A DNA stretch of 64,000 bases from a virus (lineage: Duplodnaviria; Caudoviricetes): positions 32,001-96,000 of IMG/VR virus record IMGVR_UViG_2706796186_000001; one strand, 5' to 3'. Made by a program: the position numbers and the translations under genes. This document shows, piece by piece, positions 4,280 through 32,165 of the stretch (position 1 is the stretch's first letter; the number at the start of each line of letters is the position of its first letter). The notes beneath the pieces were generated by a model. It saw nothing but the letters and a program-made list of their open reading frames with translations, had not been told where the DNA came from and made no database searches.

Positions 4280-4305
4280 AGAGGGGCAGATGCCCCTCTT
4301 TTTTT
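4280..4305 (+). terminator. Intrinsic terminator / possible attenuator
   Basis: AGAGGGGC-AGAT-GCCCCTCT followed by T-run. Confidence 0.7.
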
Positions 4306-6346: not shown

Positions 6347-6958
6347 ATGTCTCGTCGTAAAAAGCAGCCTGGTTTTAGCCCGCGTGAAGCAGCACGCGAA
6401 CGTGTCCGTAGCATCATGCGTGGCATGAACACGACTGAGAATGTTTTCCTCGGTCATTCGAAAACGCACGCCGAGAAAATCGACCGTGAGTTTGAACGTA
6501 TCAACTCGCTGATGGGCGAAGACCTGAAAGCGTATTTGACGGAGTGGTTAAAGCACTCACAGGCTGCCTTCTTGGGTGCCATGCACGACTTCAAAACGCG
6601 CCTGTTTGCGGTGCGTACTGATGCCGATGCAAAGGCAACCAAACTGATGGCGGTCATCGACGGCCACAAGTGGGACGAAATCAAAGATGTCGTGATTGTG
6701 GCTGAGCTGGAACTGGCGGACTTTGACATTCAGGTGGACAACGTGGCACAGGAAACCCTGCTGTCTATCGTTGAAGCCGGTGCGGCGTATGAACAGCGTC
6801 GTGAATGTGTCCGCGTGGGCCTGAACAACAACTGGACCCATGAAGCAATCCTGACCAAGCTGCGCGAGCTGGATGCCCAAGCTGCCGCCGAAGCACTGGC
6901 AGCGGCAGAAGCAACAGCTGAATCTGTAGTAGAGCAAGAGGAACCTGCGAATGTCTAA
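6347..6958 (+). CDS. Hypothetical helical protein
   Basis: AAGGA SD before ATG 6347 (MSRRKKQ...); track start 6311 probably too long. Confidence 0.75.
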   Translation: MSRRKKQPGFSPREAARERVRSIMRGMNTTENVFLGHSKTHAEKIDREFERINSLMGEDLKAYLTEWLKHSQAAFLGAMHDFKTRLFAVRTDADAKATKLMAVIDGHKWDEIKDVVIVAELELADFDIQVDNVAQETLLSIVEAGAAYEQRRECVRVGLNNNWTHEAILTKLRELDAQAAAEALAAAEATAESVVEQEEPANV

Positions 6959-8975
6959 CGATCCGCGTCCGTCGTTCGGTGCTGCCGAACCGGAAACGGC
7001 TGAGGTGCGACTTCCTCCGCGTGACACCCTTGTGGGTAAGTCCGCGGAAGAGGTGGCCTTCGAGCTGGTAAAACTCAATCCCACTTTTTCTTTTGCCGAA
7101 GCAACTGAACGCGCGAAAAGTCTGGTGATGTTAAATGCCCCGGTAGAAGATACCCCACCCCCTGTGGTGGATGTACTCGATCAACCGATGATTCGTGAAG
7201 CGTCACCAGAAAACCTGGCGGCCCTGCAAAGCACTGAGAACCAACTGGAGCAGCCGGTCAAACTTGACCTGTCTCAGTCACAATCTCAGCCTGAACCAGC
7301 GCCTGCGGTGCAACCGCGTGCGGAACCCATCGCAAGCATTCCTGCTGCAAGTGCGGAGAATTTCCCTAAGCCTCAGCATGTTCCGGTTAAAGCGGAAGTG
7401 ATTCCTGCCCCAGCGCTCGATGCCGAAGATACTCCGGCTGACCGCGATGAGCAGACGCCGAACCTCTCAAAAGAGAAACGTCGTCAGATTGATTTCGGGC
7501 CAGAACCGCACCGTGCTGAAATTGCCAGCATGGACCCGGAAGACCCACATCGTGTGCTGACTCAAAGTGATGAGCTGGTCGGTACTACATTGCCGCTGGC
7601 AGGTGAGCAGGAAGTCATGCAGTTCTTCGCCAGCATCCCACGTAATCGTGAAGGGCGTCCGATGTTCCGTTCAGCCGCCGAAGAGGAGCGTTATCAGAAG
7701 CTCTTTACGGCGCTGGAACTGACCCCGCCTATCATGATTAACAACCGCGCTGCGTTTGACATGGCGTTGGAGCGTGAAGATACGTCGTGGCAACAGACCA
7801 TCCAACTGTCGAACGGTAAGTATGTCTCTGCGGTCACCGACCGTGGTGCAAATGCCCAAGGTGCGATGGCTGCCCTGCGTCGTCGTCGTGGTTCCGGTTC
7901 TCCGGTCTCAGTGTGGTTGCCTGCAACCGGTATCTTTGTCGGTTTCCGTGCCCCGCATGAAAACGACATGTGTGACTTCGACATTCGTATCACGTCAGAA
8001 CAGTCGAAAATCGGGATGTTCACTTACGGTCTGCTGTTGGCCTCGTCTTCGGGCGTGTATCTCCAGCACATGATCGAACACTCGCTGAACTTTGCGGTGG
8101 ACACCACGTACGACTGTCAGGGTCTGGACATTAAGACCGCCCTGATGGACATCGTGGATGTGGACGACTACTGGCTGCTGGTCATTGGCCCATTGATGGC
8201 GAAGTTCCCAGCGGGTATTCCGTGGAAGCTGCTGTGCCCTAACCACGAATGTGGTCATGAGCGTGAAGTGCGTCTGAATCTGGCCCGCTGTATCCGTATG
8301 GCAGATGGCCTGTTCTCTGACCTACACCGTTCGCTCTGGCTGCGCCAGCGTGGTAAAGGCCCGGATGCAATTATCGGCAACGCCGAGTATCTGGAATACC
8401 GCAAAGAGCTGCCGAAGTCCAAAGCCGCCCGTTTCCATTACGAGCAGCTGGGTATCACGGTAGAGTTCGGTCGTTCGACCATCGGTCAGTTCATTGACAA
8501 CACCAATGCGTGGGTAGAGAAGATTAACAGCTCTGCCACCAACGCACTGGCGAACCATGCAACTGAAACCGAGCGCTCGCAATACATCCGTCTGGCTGCT
8601 GAGAACCGCCGCCTGACCCGTTATGCGACGCACGTTAAAGCCATCATCGTTGAAGAGACGGTGAAAGGTGAACCGGTTGAGACCCGCGAAGAAGATCCAG
8701 ACCGTATTTTCGAAATGTTAGAAGAACTCTCTTCTGACCGCATGTACGTGCTGGCATTTGAAAACGCGCTGTCCACTTACAACGAAGAATCGCGCATGGC
8801 CGTGTTTGGTTACATGGGTCACGCGTGTCCGAGCTGTAAGACCGGCGAGGGTGAAGAAGACGGTCCGTTCCGTGGTATTGTTACCATCAGCCCGGACAAG
8901 GTTTTTTTCGCGCTATCTCGTGTGGTGTTCGAGATACAGAGAGTCTACTTACAACAATTCGAAAATATTGGATAG
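6951..8975 (+). CDS. Conserved phage protein with two Cys pairs; candidate tail/baseplate assembly chaperone (G-type)
   Basis: 674 aa, Pro/Ala/Glu-rich N-terminus, CPNHEC and CPSC motifs, slippery heptamer near 3' end; function is inferred. Confidence 0.6.
   Translation: MSNDPRPSFGAAEPETAEVRLPPRDTLVGKSAEEVAFELVKLNPTFSFAEATERAKSLVMLNAPVEDTPPPVVDVLDQPMIREASPENLAALQSTENQLEQPVKLDLSQSQSQPEPAPAVQPRAEPIASIPAASAENFPKPQHVPVKAEVIPAPALDAEDTPADRDEQTPNLSKEKRRQIDFGPEPHRAEIASMDPEDPHRVLTQSDELVGTTLPLAGEQEVMQFFASIPRNREGRPMFRSAAEEERYQKLFTALELTPPIMINNRAAFDMALEREDTSWQQTIQLSNGKYVSAVTDRGANAQGAMAALRRRRGSGSPVSVWLPATGIFVGFRAPHENDMCDFDIRITSEQSKIGMFTYGLLLASSSGVYLQHMIEHSLNFAVDTTYDCQGLDIKTALMDIVDVDDYWLLVIGPLMAKFPAGIPWKLLCPNHECGHEREVRLNLARCIRMADGLFSDLHRSLWLRQRGKGPDAIIGNAEYLEYRKELPKSKAARFHYEQLGITVEFGRSTIGQFIDNTNAWVEKINSSATNALANHATETERSQYIRLAAENRRLTRYATHVKAIIVEETVKGEPVETREEDPDRIFEMLEELSSDRMYVLAFENALSTYNEESRMAVFGYMGHACPSCKTGEGEEDGPFRGIVTISPDKVFFALSRVVFEIQRVYLQQFENIG
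8903..8936 (+). other. Putative programmed -1 ribosomal frameshift signal
   Basis: In-frame T TTT TTC heptamer at 8903-8909; stem TATCTCG(8914-20)/CGAGATA(8930-36); -1 frame open from 8855 to 9382. Confidence 0.65.
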
Positions 8976-9013
8976 ACGCCGACGACGTTCCAGCCGAAGC
9001 TATTATCACTGCC

Positions 9014-9382
9014 ATGAAGCTGGACACCACCTCGCTGTTCAAACGGCGAGACAGTCGACCTATCACGTATCAAGAAGCGCATGACGAGCTACTCTCCACG
9101 TACGACGGGATACTCGGGTTAGAGACCGGTGAGAACAACATCAGTGTCTCTGACTTCGAGAACCCTATCAACCAGAGCTTGTATGAAATCTGGGCGACCA
9201 CGTACGTGCGTGAAGGTATCAAGGAACTGTTTGGTTACGACCTTGATACTTGGCTTGATAGGCCGCGTTGGAAGTTGATGAAGCATCTGGAAATCGCAAA
9301 ACGTCGTCGCGCTGAGCTAGACAATGCTAAGAAAGGCGCAATCCCGCCAGAACTTGAGAAAGAACTGAAAGGGCGCATCTAA
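9014..9382 (+). CDS. Hypothetical protein; probably the frameshifted C-terminal extension (GT-type) of 6951..8975
   Basis: No SD before ATG 9014; frame continuous with the -1 frame of the slippery site; FGYDLDTWLDRPRW segment resembles tail-chaperone C-terminal domains. Confidence 0.65.
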   Translation: MKLDTTSLFKRRDSRPITYQEAHDELLSTYDGILGLETGENNISVSDFENPINQSLYEIWATTYVREGIKELFGYDLDTWLDRPRWKLMKHLEIAKRRRAELDNAKKGAIPPELEKELKGRI

Positions 9383-9409
9383 GGGAGCTTCGGCTCCCTT
9401 ATATTTTTT
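9381..9409 (+). terminator. Intrinsic terminator
   Basis: AAGGGAGC-TTCG-GCTCCCTT then T-rich tail. Confidence 0.85.
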
Positions 9410-9441
9410 TGTTGTTATGAGACTCATTTTAGGAAACCGTC

Positions 9442-12102: not shown

Positions 12103-12146
12103 AAAATAAAGCTACCTACTCCCGATGGAGTAGGTAGTCTTTTTAT
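12101..12146. terminator. Bidirectional terminator
   Basis: A-tract, CTACCTACTCC-CGAT-GGAGTAGGTAG, T-tract between convergent genes. Confidence 0.85.
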
Positions 12147-13924
12147 TAAAACCCTTGTGCGTATTCTTCAGCAGGTTCACTGTTGGCCACACGACGGTTA
12201 AACACCTCCAACACGTCATCCTTATCCGGTAACAGGAAGAAGGTGTTGGCAATGTCCATGGCATTCACACGACCGGCTGTCAGGTTCACACCGGTACGAC
12301 GACGTACCTCTTCAGACACCCCATTGATGAACAGCAGTTCAAAGATGGTGGTTTCACGAGACTGGTTCATCATGTTGGTCGCTGACGGATAAGCCTGTGT
12401 CAAGTCCGCATCTGCCGTCTGACCACGGAAGGCAGAATAGAACTGTGGCAGCTCCTTCAAGACATCCAACCCGTTCTCGGCATTCATACACGCCGTTAAC
12501 GTGACGATCCAACCGTCTGTCCCGATAACCTCCTCATCGTAGTTGTTACGCATCTCTGCACCCACACTGCCCGCCACGTAGCCTTGGGCTAACAGGTAGT
12601 AGGTGAAGGCGATACAGATACGCTTCGGTAACGACGGGAAGATGTCGTACATCGAGTAACCGGCCAAAATCGTTATCGCTGAGGAAAGGTCGTTGGTTTT
12701 CTTATCCAACAAGACAATCATCAGGTTATCGAAGATGTTATAGACACAATATTCCAACGGGAACTCTCGTTGGGCTTTTAAGTGCCAATCCAGTTTCTCC
12801 TCGTACGGCAATCCCGGTATGTCAAGTTTGTTCAGGCCCAGCTCTGAATCCAGAATCGCATTCAGTTTATAGCTGGGTCGCTGACCCTCATGCACACGCA
12901 GGGAGCGGAACAACACCATGGCATCCACGCAGAAGAACGACGCCATACAGTACAAGACGTGCCACTGCTGGCTCGGTGCTTTGGTAAGCGACTTGGACTC
13001 CGTCTTCTTCGACGCCAAATCTTTCTTGAACCACACCTTACGGTACTGCCTTGGCACATCCGGGTGACAGAACACGTCTTCCGGCTCGATACAGCCACGC
13101 TCTAACGCTTCCATCATACGGGTGATATCGAACTCGTGGTTCCATGCCACTAACAGGTCAGGCAGACGTGGGTGAATCTCTTCAAACATACGGACGATAC
13201 ATTGCGCCGAGTCTAAGCACTCGTAAGTGAAGATTTTGTAATCGGCAATGACGTTCTTCACTTTGACTTCGGTTTCGCCCGTCTTTTTATTTTTTTCTCT
13301 GAACTCAATCTTGCTCAGCAGTTCCTGCGCTTTGGCAACCAGGCGGTTATCCCAGTTCTTGCCGATACGCGCCACGTAATCCTTCGTGCAGAACATGTGA
13401 ATTTCATCGTCCAGTACAAAGGACATGATCCACGGGTCACGCGATTTGTCTTCTTCGCGTGTTTCTACGTCGTAGACACAGATGCGGTTCGGTGTGGTGC
13501 AGTCTTTGTACTTCGCCATGTACTTCTGTTTAATCCAGCTAGTGACCGGTAAGTCCGCCAGATAAACAAACGGGCTAGTACAGACCTGACGAAGACGCTT
13601 CTTCGGATCAGGGAAACGGGCACCCAGACCCATTTGCAATGTCTTGGCCATTAACGCATCGGTCGTCAATAACTCCTGACAACGCGACTTCAATTCGAAC
13701 TCTTTCTTTTCCTTGTGATTACGGTACGGCTCTTGCGTCACGTACACCGGACGCTTCACATTTTCACGCAGCTGAATACGCGGAATAAGCCGTCCATCCT
13801 TAGTATGGATGACCTCTTTAATGAGGACTAAGTCGTTTTCTCCGCTTTCGTCAGTGGCATAAGCGACGTGCTTACACTCCTTCGCTATGACGTCATCGGG
13901 GCTGAAATACATGTTGGTTTCCAT
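12146..13924 (-). CDS. Family B DNA polymerase, exonuclease + motif A subunit of the split polymerase (phiKZ gp82-like)
   Basis: ExoI VYDVET, ExoII AWNHEFDI, ExoIII YNIFD, motif A DADLTQAYPS near the C-terminus; no motif B/C. Confidence 0.88.
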   Translation of the reverse strand: METNMYFSPDDVIAKECKHVAYATDESGENDLVLIKEVIHTKDGRLIPRIQLRENVKRPVYVTQEPYRNHKEKKEFELKSRCQELLTTDALMAKTLQMGLGARFPDPKKRLRQVCTSPFVYLADLPVTSWIKQKYMAKYKDCTTPNRICVYDVETREEDKSRDPWIMSFVLDDEIHMFCTKDYVARIGKNWDNRLVAKAQELLSKIEFREKNKKTGETEVKVKNVIADYKIFTYECLDSAQCIVRMFEEIHPRLPDLLVAWNHEFDITRMMEALERGCIEPEDVFCHPDVPRQYRKVWFKKDLASKKTESKSLTKAPSQQWHVLYCMASFFCVDAMVLFRSLRVHEGQRPSYKLNAILDSELGLNKLDIPGLPYEEKLDWHLKAQREFPLEYCVYNIFDNLMIVLLDKKTNDLSSAITILAGYSMYDIFPSLPKRICIAFTYYLLAQGYVAGSVGAEMRNNYDEEVIGTDGWIVTLTACMNAENGLDVLKELPQFYSAFRGQTADADLTQAYPSATNMMNQSRETTIFELLFINGVSEEVRRRTGVNLTAGRVNAMDIANTFFLLPDKDDVLEVFNRRVANSEPAEEYAQGF

Positions 13925-30853: not shown

Positions 30854-32165
30854 GGGTAAAACCACATTCGAGCCGGTTAAGACGGAACCCGAATACCTGA
30901 ATCAAGCTCAAGACGGCGTCAAGGAAAAAACCAACATCGTCACAGAGCCCACCAGAACGACCGTAGTCGATTTAGAGCGTACGCCTGCCGTTAACCTGCT
31001 TCCTGTCGTTGAAGGCTCCTCGTGGCCGCTGCTGGCGTATTATCGACGGTTAATGGGCAAGAACGACCCGAAGATGCTGTTCGACCCGAAACAGGACACG
31101 CCGGTACAGCAATACGACTGCATCCACTATCTGGAGCTGCGGGTTAACAGTCCCTTGTCGCGTGACCAAGACGGGGGCAACAAAACCTTCACCATGTCGG
31201 GCAGTGCCACCATGGCCACGTCCGTGGTACCGAACGAAAACGATATCTTCACGGCCTCCCTTGGAGATAACCGTGTCGGTATCTTTAACGTCACCACTAC
31301 CACCCGTAATTCGAACAACAAGGTTGCCACCTATTCCATTGAGTACACCTTACTCTTTGAAATGTCACCTGCCCACAAAGCCATACTGGACAAGTGTACG
31401 GCGCATGAGTTCTATTACGTTAAGGAACGTGCGTATACGGGTGGTGACACCTTACTCACCCCGAACGAGTACAACGCGTACTTGGCACTCGGTGAGCATG
31501 TCAAGGGGATTGAGGAGACGTACCTGCGTCGTTTCTTTAACGAGGACGCGCAAACGATTCTCTTCCCGGATGACCGTTACGGGTATGCCTACGATGTGTT
31601 CTTGGCGCAGTTCGTCCGGGACATTGGCCTGCGTATGGTGGGTAAAGATGTGCGTATCTATCCGCACCCAACCAAACCGATTCGTGATATCGAAACGCTG
31701 TTCACGGTCATCATCGCCCAACAACCCCTGTTCCTGCAAGATGTCAATCGCAAGAACAAAGGGTTGTCGGTGCGGTCGTTCCGTACCATGCAGACGTACA
31801 ACAACGTGGGTTGGTCGAAGATTGCAGTAACGCGCTACTTCTCTGACGATGCGCCGTTGCGTCAAATGCCTGCGGAATGGCCGAAGTTCGATGACTTTAC
31901 CAGCATAGATGTGTTGCTGGAAGGCTCGAACGAAACGGTGCCGGGCTTCCTGCCGTTAACGTACACGCCATACCTGCTGACTGACGTGTTTTACAACGGC
32001 GGATACAGCTCCGGGCTGGAGTACGCACTACAGCAGTACCTGAACAAACAACCGCTTTCCACAAAGCTGGCGCTGGATTTGGCGAAGCAGGTTCACAAGC
32101 TGCCGAAGACCGCGCAACTGTATTACGTACCACTGGTGTACGTATTGTTGAAATACGCGAGGTAA
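30834..32165 (+). CDS. Probable virion structural protein
   Basis: GAGG SD before ATG 30834; synteny. Confidence 0.55.
   Translation: MLQAKGKGKTTFEPVKTEPEYLNQAQDGVKEKTNIVTEPTRTTVVDLERTPAVNLLPVVEGSSWPLLAYYRRLMGKNDPKMLFDPKQDTPVQQYDCIHYLELRVNSPLSRDQDGGNKTFTMSGSATMATSVVPNENDIFTASLGDNRVGIFNVTTTTRNSNNKVATYSIEYTLLFEMSPAHKAILDKCTAHEFYYVKERAYTGGDTLLTPNEYNAYLALGEHVKGIEETYLRRFFNEDAQTILFPDDRYGYAYDVFLAQFVRDIGLRMVGKDVRIYPHPTKPIRDIETLFTVIIAQQPLFLQDVNRKNKGLSVRSFRTMQTYNNVGWSKIAVTRYFSDDAPLRQMPAEWPKFDDFTSIDVLLEGSNETVPGFLPLTYTPYLLTDVFYNGGYSSGLEYALQQYLNKQPLSTKLALDLAKQVHKLPKTAQLYYVPLVYVLLKYAR

Follow-up and report, generated by a model that had tools for sequence, protein, structure and literature searches.

A candidate frameshifted gene with short and long products in nucleus-forming jumbo phages

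The stretch of DNA analyzed here (64,000 nucleotides, hereafter "the window") is part of a 240,761-bp virus record, IMGVR_UViG_2706796186_000001, of which it covers positions 32,001 to 96,000. It carries two adjacent open reading frames (ORFs), ORF1 and ORF2, the second of which lies in the -1 frame relative to the first. ORF1 is homologous to phiKZ gp77, SPN3US gp39 and the Chimalliviridae core gene cg18, and we refer to these proteins collectively as the gp77 family. The arrangement of the two ORFs raised a question: are they separate genes, or are they one gene that is read in two ways? An initial annotation, made from the letters of the window, had favored the latter, proposing a programmed -1 frameshift that yields a G/GT-type pair of tail chaperones. 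Having compared the locus with its relatives, we consider it likely (with a probability of roughly 0.72) that ORF1 and ORF2 constitute a single recoded gene that gives rise to a short and a long isoform, with a role in baseplate-hub assembly as their likeliest function. All coordinates are those of the window, + strand, and are collected in Table 1.

Conservation of the slip site and of both reading frames

The putative slip site occurs in the ORF1 context ...GAC AAG GTT TTT TTC GCG..., in which the heptamer T_TTT_TTC is in phase with the ORF1 codons and falls within a run of seven T residues (T7; 8902-8908). The -1 frame is open from 8855 to 9379 (stop at 9380-9382) and passes through the ATG at 9014, the annotated start of ORF2. 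A slip after Phe653 would produce a protein of 653 + 157 = 810 amino acids (aa), and the unslipped product has 674 aa. Reading of the frames thus bears out the two product sizes given in the initial annotation, and its coordinates for the ORFs, the heptamer, a downstream stem, the open -1 frame and a terminator were all correct on recheck. The part of the extension upstream of ATG 9014 (8909-9013) encodes AISCGVR, DTESLLTTIR and YWIDADDVPAEAIITAMK; the junction of the predicted trans-frame product reads ...PDKVFFRAISC.... No Shine-Dalgarno (SD) sequence was found before ATG 9014 in the window sequence.

In the window alone, the heptamer and its accompanying hairpin are not beyond chance. TTTTTTC occurs seven times against an expectation of 13. 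There are 17 homopolymer runs of at least 7 nucleotides (nt), most of which, judged from their flanks, look like the tails of terminator-like hairpins between genes. Runs of T7 or longer begin at 4299, 9404, 17621, 27429, 29249, 36929, 41487, 47592, 55207, 61804 and 62699, among others; the one at 8902 is one of very few located inside a long ORF. The recoding signal is significant because it is conserved in relatives, not because of the features of one genome.

The comparison set comprised the window and 29 further distinct loci (28 from IMG/VR and one from a Vibrio phage), 30 in all, representing SPN3US-, phiEaH2-, CR5-, Wellington-, phiKZ-, PhiPA3-, Ea35-70/RAY- and RSL2-like phages as well as metagenomic relatives. 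The -1 frame was open through the U-run in all 30 loci, and the downstream piece was always in the -1 frame. A stop in the -1 overlap, one of the outcomes that the initial annotation had named as telling against a frameshift, was encountered in none of these loci. Across the 29 further loci, the frame-0 tail measured 11-21 codons and the -1 extension 151-169 codons. The site codes for Val, Leu or Thr followed by two Phe residues, written as NNT TTT TTY with the heptamer in phase, in 24 of these 29 loci and in the window; the others have T6 or T5 variants. The conservation of heptamer and phase, which had been suggested as a check across Chimalliviridae, is therefore observed in most loci.

The U-run is maintained contrary to the codon usage of the genes that contain it. 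In RSL2, each of the other 18 Phe codons in the gene is TTC, yet the site reads TTT TTT, and in the PhiPA3 gene only two of the 21 Phe codons elsewhere are TTT. Codon usage would predict only 0-0.3 occurrences of NNT TTT per gene.

Conservation continues directly past the site. When the extension was used as a tblastn query, 57 of 58 phage records gave alignments that started at its residue 1, immediately beyond the slip site, and that spanned two annotated genes. The extension is homologous across 20 diverse loci. Its first Met is located anywhere from residue 7 to residue 124 in the 29 further loci and at residues 36-125 among 13 close relatives; in the phage Caitlin, the ATG at 9014 is replaced by CTG. 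A conserved block (KLD/TSLFK/PITYQEAH) is present upstream of the first Met in most of the 13 close relatives. These data indicate that ORF2 possesses no conserved start codon of its own; the initial annotation had seen neither an SD sequence nor an earlier start codon for it.

Codon periodicity, measured as the identity at each codon position in 13 SPN3US-like loci, identified the frame being translated. The least conserved position was the frame-0 wobble position upstream of the site (0.39) and the -1 wobble position downstream of the frame-0 stop (0.39), and the -1 periodicity was already present between that stop and the first Mets of the extension. In the 66-nt overlap, the wobble identity of both frames was raised to 0.70, compared to 0.39 outside, as expected for dual coding; both overlap translations are conserved in the 13 loci. 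In all 13 close relatives, the frame-0 TAG overlaps a Leu/Ile codon of the form xTA in the -1 frame, a rare type: only 2-15% of the Leu/Ile codons in these genes end in TA. Further, Leu655, the second residue beyond the slip in the frame-0 tail, shows no variation among 22 sequences. Because the TAG is retained within a rare codon and Leu655 does not vary, the C-terminus of the short form is presumably selected as well. Both products, short and long, thus appear to be under selection.

A profile search with the extension returned 1381 clusters at 50% identity. The best 150 of these 1381 were all stand-alone calls of 94-186 aa with ragged N-termini; therefore, among these 150, the split was never resolved into a plain fusion. 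The persistence of this layout over wide divergence, with neither a fusion nor a start codon, argues that both isoforms are needed. On the strength of these comparisons, a conserved programmed -1 recoding event very probably joins ORF1 to ORF2.

Proposed mechanism and competing routes to the second product

How could the long product arise? Ribosomes on GUU UUU UUC (8901-8909) would hold tRNA-Phe in the P and A sites, and in a fraction of passages both tRNAs would re-pair one base back. The geometry suits a tandem slip: two tRNA-Phe molecules on UUU UUC re-pair perfectly on U_UUU_UU. From CGC at 8909 onwards, decoding would follow the -1 frame, and the 157 residues gained would extend the product to the 810-aa long form. 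Ribosomes that do not slip would read 21 codons more, which make up a C-terminal amphipathic helix in the structural model, and would stop at the TAG at 8973, yielding the 674-aa short form. The two isoforms would share their body; the short one would end in the helix, and the long one would carry a flexible linker and a small helical domain. We infer that the slip is ribosomal.

The initial annotation had also proposed a stimulator, namely the 7-bp stem TATCTCG/CGAGATA, which begins 4 nt past the heptamer and has a 9-nt loop. This stem is present in the window but is probably not a conserved stimulator. Its energy (-7.1 kcal/mol, z = -0.49) was matched by 51 of 200 shuffled sequences, no compensatory change was observed across 13 relatives, the outer pairs 12-34 and 13-33 were broken in 6-7 of the 13, and the consensus fold of the region was weak. 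An examination of the 66 nt downstream of the site in ten lineages found no common structure (z-scores from -2.4 to +1.25, with one lineage below -1). A role of the hairpin as a conserved stimulator is thus not supported. Such an element is not obligatory for the X_XXY_YYZ class of tandem slippage, and the lambda G-T frameshift needs no strong RNA stimulator. Because no conserved stimulator was found, our expectation is that the slip would be of modest efficiency and unstimulated, as in lambda G-T.

The same 810-aa protein would result from transcriptional slippage, with the phage or host polymerase slipping on the template A7 such that some of the mRNAs gain an extra U. Most of the loci have 7-8 T residues, and runs of T7-T8 lie in the length range of known polymerase slippage; apart from this one, the T7 runs of the window lie almost exclusively in terminator tails, and the failure to find an RNA stimulator of ribosomal shifting also fits this route. 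However, the T6 of the PhiPA3-like loci and the T5 of the Vibrio phage favor the ribosomal reading, and the run is always positioned such that both Phe tRNAs can re-pair. In addition, RNA contigs from phiKZ infections (Logan, four studies) show T7 at the site, as does the DNA, and no inserted base. These contigs exclude bulk insertion; a minority U8 species is compatible with them, as contigs drop minor variants. On balance, we regard transcriptional slippage as unlikely. Less likely by some distance is that the U-run is incidental and that ORF2 is an ordinary gene, translated from ATG 9014 or by re-initiation. The ATG is indeed present, and all database records annotate two genes. Opposing this notion are the poor conservation of that ATG (CTG in Caitlin; scattered first Mets in the close relatives), the conserved block and the -1 periodicity that precede the first Mets, the lack of an SD sequence ahead of 9014, the open -1 frame in every locus, and the retention of the U-run in the face of codon bias. 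In keeping with two genes is also the locus of the Vibrio phage pVp-JHP1101 (L009:3381-3875), the most distant ortholog. There, the -1 arrangement is kept, and similarity to the window extension begins at the annotated ATG of ORF2; this lineage may have shifted towards independent initiation.

Homopolymer runs are error-prone, and a fused ORF is found in one phage record (SEGD1) and in one metagenomic contig (P0003). Could the split be a sequencing error in what is truly one 810-codon ORF, or the mark of a decaying gene? We find this hardly credible: dozens of genomes and metagenomes, sequenced independently of one another, have the same split, both frames appear to be under purifying selection, and the T7C of SEGD1 is intact, its fusion being caused by a divergent 20-nt patch farther upstream that contains an inserted nucleotide. 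In the record of Enterobacteria phage SEGD1 (KU726251.1; L043:2264-2285), a single fused ORF of 795 aa is annotated, and the patch has many mismatches to SPN3US, to which the sequence is otherwise identical. The record may contain an error confined to this patch, or SEGD1 may be a viable variant in which the long form alone is made; given the artefact-like upstream insertion, we rejected this case as a natural in-frame fusion. P0003 was likewise rejected, as the frame of this contig changes about 35 codons upstream. SEGD1 and P0003 were the sole fused proteins seen, and both are artefact-like. A third candidate, the 687-aa BFVD entry from Myoviridae sp. ctLnO19, proved to be an ORF1 homolog with a separate 171-aa entry for the extension.

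Some of the observations sit uneasily with a ribosomal slip in all lineages. The PhiPA3/201phi2-1-like loci offer G_TTT_TTT (T6) and pVp-JHP1101 only C_TTT_TTA (T5), both of which are weaker sites for tandem slippage; ORF2 of pVp-JHP1101 may initiate separately; neither a conserved stimulatory structure nor an upstream SD-like element was found in the lineages examined; and the phiKZ RNA contigs leave room for a minority of U8 transcripts.

Relation to hub-assembly proteins, tail chaperones and other frameshifted genes

In the AlphaFold2 (AF2) model of ORF1, residues 190-674 have a predicted local distance difference test score (pLDDT) of about 90, residues 67-187 are disordered, and a small helical domain (approximately residues 23-62) is confidently modeled. 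The slip site is situated at the start of the last helix (648-673), and the long form would therefore lose that helix. In the model of the extension, residues 1-24 are disordered; weak helices and a confident helical domain (approximately residues 90-145) are also present. Residues 1-190 of ORF1 (6951-7520) represent an extra N-terminal region of the SPN3US-like clade that is missing from the phiKZ-like orthologs. It consists of the small helical domain mentioned above followed by a 120-residue disordered linker rich in Pro, Ala and Glu.

To what is the body related? A Foldseek search of BFVD returned its jumbo-phage orthologs first and then a "Baseplate hub assembly protein, T4-like" (E = 3.4e-5, probability 1.0, template-modeling (TM) score by target 0.46), a match of predicted to predicted structures, there being no solved structure to compare. 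Further matches, with E from 1e-3 to 5e-2, were to entries for T4-like hub subunits or hub assembly chaperones. One of 22 family members, the relative L035, matched PF12322 (T4_baseplate, the family of T4 gp26 and gp51) with 23.5 bits (E = 5e-5), slightly below the gathering cut-off of 24.5; its residues 357-498 aligned to positions 107-212 of the 219 in the profile, and the matched region ends about 15 residues before the slip site of L035. In a language-model search, a PF12322-containing cluster scored 0.89. Finally, alignments of the ORF1 core contain four near-invariant Cys residues (C429, C434, C626 and C629), and the initial annotation had remarked upon two Cys pairs; four conserved Cys in two pairs are common to T4 gp26/gp51 and the gp77 family.

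From these data, we consider the body to be probably a remote, enlarged homolog of the T4_baseplate family. There is a suggestive parallel to the proposed isoforms: T4 gp26 comprises the domain only (residues 1-206 of 208 aa), and T4 gp51 comprises the domain (1-201) plus a 48-aa tail (249 aa in total). T4 differs in that it uses two paralogous genes and no frameshift, and in the jumbo phages the size of the body is increased 2-3 times by insertions and, in the SPN3US-like clade, by the 190-aa N-terminal region. Because of the probable relation of the body to T4_baseplate, we infer that the likeliest role of the two isoforms is that of a non-virion pair of baseplate-hub assembly factors, with a ratio that would be set by the frameshift. 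The phiKZ record flags gp79 and gp80 as structural, but not gp77. The paper on the Goslar virion structure (10.64898/2026.04.21.720040) describes a T4-like hub, and gp81, the cg18 ortholog, is not named in its text. Both are absences of mention only.

Other results argue against this relation and role. The window protein did not match PF12322 even at E <= 10. When the ORF1 alignment was compared by hhalign to T4 gp51, T4 gp26 and a 17-member gp51 alignment, the probability was at most 19%, and only CPxC and a short beta-strand patch were aligned. Foldseek on the PDB and a wide VIA-align search gave no meaningful match (best Z 5.3, to a helical hairpin, for the body; best Z 4.6, to MerR-like helices, for the extension). 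Also, transcription and replication genes surround the locus. A word-seeded profile search with the ORF1 profile returned only orthologs, none of them with PF12322, and no similarity was found between the extension and the gp51 tail. A six-frame search of the whole virus genome for PF12322 found nothing, but the control for this search gave no match either. The initial annotation's comparison to gp26/gp51-type proteins is thus weakly backed by the fold matches and by the sub-threshold Pfam match of a relative; it draws no help from the profile-profile comparisons or from the Pfam search with the window protein.

The other functional proposal, a lambda-type tail assembly chaperone (TAC) pair such as lambda G/GT or P2 E/E+E', holds that the short form binds the tape measure protein and that the long form recruits tail tube subunits. 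The expression logic is shared: the -1 shift is placed at an in-phase heptamer close to the 3' end, the two products have their N-terminal body in common, the long form alone has an additional C-terminal domain, and the arrangement is retained across a phage group despite sequence divergence. Among the named language-model clusters, the one nearest to the extension is the P2 GpE family, with a score (0.86) that is rated as often a chance result. Membership in the G/GT family is nevertheless not supported, as size, family match and position all fail. The body has 674 aa, as opposed to about 100-150, making it five times larger; no TAC annotation from Pfam or PHROG was found; the fold matches were to T4 hub assembly proteins instead; and the neighbors encode RNA polymerase (RNAP) subunits, a helicase and DNA polymerase, with no tape measure gene adjoining downstream. 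The gp77 family has no sequence or fold relation to lambda G/GT, and it differs further in its extension of about 157 aa after a disordered linker and in a shift that would also strip a conserved C-terminal helix from the long form. A true tail-chaperone pair is hence quite improbable. The -1 shift and the two products with a common N-terminus survive from the original claim, and "G/GT-like" is apt only as an analogy of logic, i.e. a shared-body pair in a fixed ratio.

Phage T7 gene 10 (10A/10B) and Escherichia coli dnaX (tau/gamma) also undergo -1 frameshifts near the 3' end of the gene, which set the ratio of isoforms. Like the gp77 family, they feature one gene, two isoforms that differ at the C-terminus, and a U- or A-rich slippery run. 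In dnaX, the shift truncates the protein and needs an upstream SD-like element and a downstream stem-loop, neither of which is conserved in the gp77 family. The extension of 10B is short and dispensable, whereas both ends of the gp77 family appear to be under selection across the whole virus family.

A bolder and more doubtful proposition is that nucleus-forming jumbo phages replaced the two hub-assembly paralogs of T4 (gp26- and gp51-type) with one gene and a frameshift, the slip frequency fixing the stoichiometry of an essential baseplate-hub assembly machine family-wide. Since these phages carry ribosome-binding proteins, the slip frequency could be tunable during infection. The recoded gene would provide a handle on T4-like hub assembly in nucleus-forming phages and could serve as a natural reporter of frameshifting by ribosomes at work on phage mRNA that has left the phage nucleus. 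Beside G/GT, it would be a second, independent instance in which a whole group of tailed phages has retained a frameshift.

Genomic setting and annotation of the locus

The window locus is 90-95% identical to those of Machinavirus-type Erwinia/Salmonella jumbo phages. Close orthologs of the ORF pair include SPN3US gp39+gp40 and the corresponding genes of phiEaH2, CR5, Wellington and EarlPhillipIV; more distant ones are phiKZ gp77 with the "gp76.4" region, PhiPA3 gp074+gp073, Simmy50 gp272+gp271 and RSL2 ORF189+188. The PHROGs to which ORF1 and ORF2 belong (Table 1) are both of unknown function, and neither ORF had a Pfam match. Prichard et al. 2023 (10.1101/2023.02.24.529968, supplementary Table 3) give phiKZ gp077 as core gene cg18 of the nucleus-forming phages and class it as hypothetical. 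The neighbors are virion RNAP subunit genes, a superfamily 2 (SF2) helicase gene, a gp79-like gene and the DNA polymerase gene, and synteny with the virion-RNAP subunit gene (phiKZ gp80), gp79, gp78 and the gp75 helicase is conserved in the orthologous loci.

The public records examined annotate two genes, with the start of ORF2 placed differently in each genome examined; in phiKZ, the downstream piece is annotated merely as a small ORF, "gp76.4". None of these records has a ribosomal slippage annotation at this locus. A literature search on phiKZ, SPN3US, frameshifting in jumbo phages or Chimalliviridae, and gp77/gp76.4/PHIKZ077 found no description of it, in agreement with the remark in the initial annotation. 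Recognition of one recoded gene would correct the annotation of the examined records and would add a conserved domain of roughly 155 residues to the Chimalliviridae core proteome.

Table 1. Features of the ORF1-ORF2 locus in window coordinates
Feature	Position	Strand	Remarks
ORF1, frame-0 product, 674 aa	6951-8975	+	stop TAG 8973-8975; phrog_8054 match over full length
ORF1 conserved core, residues 301-653	7851-8909	+	from alignments; probable T4_baseplate-like (gp26/gp51) part
Slippery heptamer T_TTT_TTC	8903-8909	+	codons GTT TTT TTC (8901-8909), Val651-Phe652-Phe653
Dual-coding overlap	8909-8975	+	21-codon frame-0 tail (ALSRVVFEIQRVYLQQFENIG*) and first 22 codons of -1 extension
-1 frame extension	8909-9382	+	157 codons and stop; includes annotated ORF2
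Annotated ORF2, 122 aa	9014-9382	+	phrog_7580; -1 frame relative to ORF1
7-bp hairpin	8914-8936	+	arms TATCTCG 8914-8920 / CGAGATA 8930-8936
Intrinsic-terminator-like hairpin and T-run	9380-9410	+	9 pairs, 5 of them G-C; T-rich tail; closes the unit

The terminator that had been proposed to close the unit is corroborated by the hairpin and T-tail listed in Table 1, and a terminator-like element is also located 3' of the extension in relatives. At a locus identical to that of phiKZ (L029, 2986-3002), two of four infection studies yielded RNA contigs whose ends fall no more than a few bases from the -1 extension's stop codon (2994-2996). This hints, if weakly, at transcription ending past the extension, where the window has its terminator-like element.

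Another candidate slippery heptamer was noticed in the window. The DNA polymerase gene (12146-13924, - strand) contains an in-phase A_AAA_AAT at 13290-13296, which in the mRNA sense forms an A7 run (GAA AAA AAT AAA AAG). A -1 shift at this site would lead to a stop after one codon and hence to a truncated protein of about 213 aa, reminiscent of the gamma product of dnaX.

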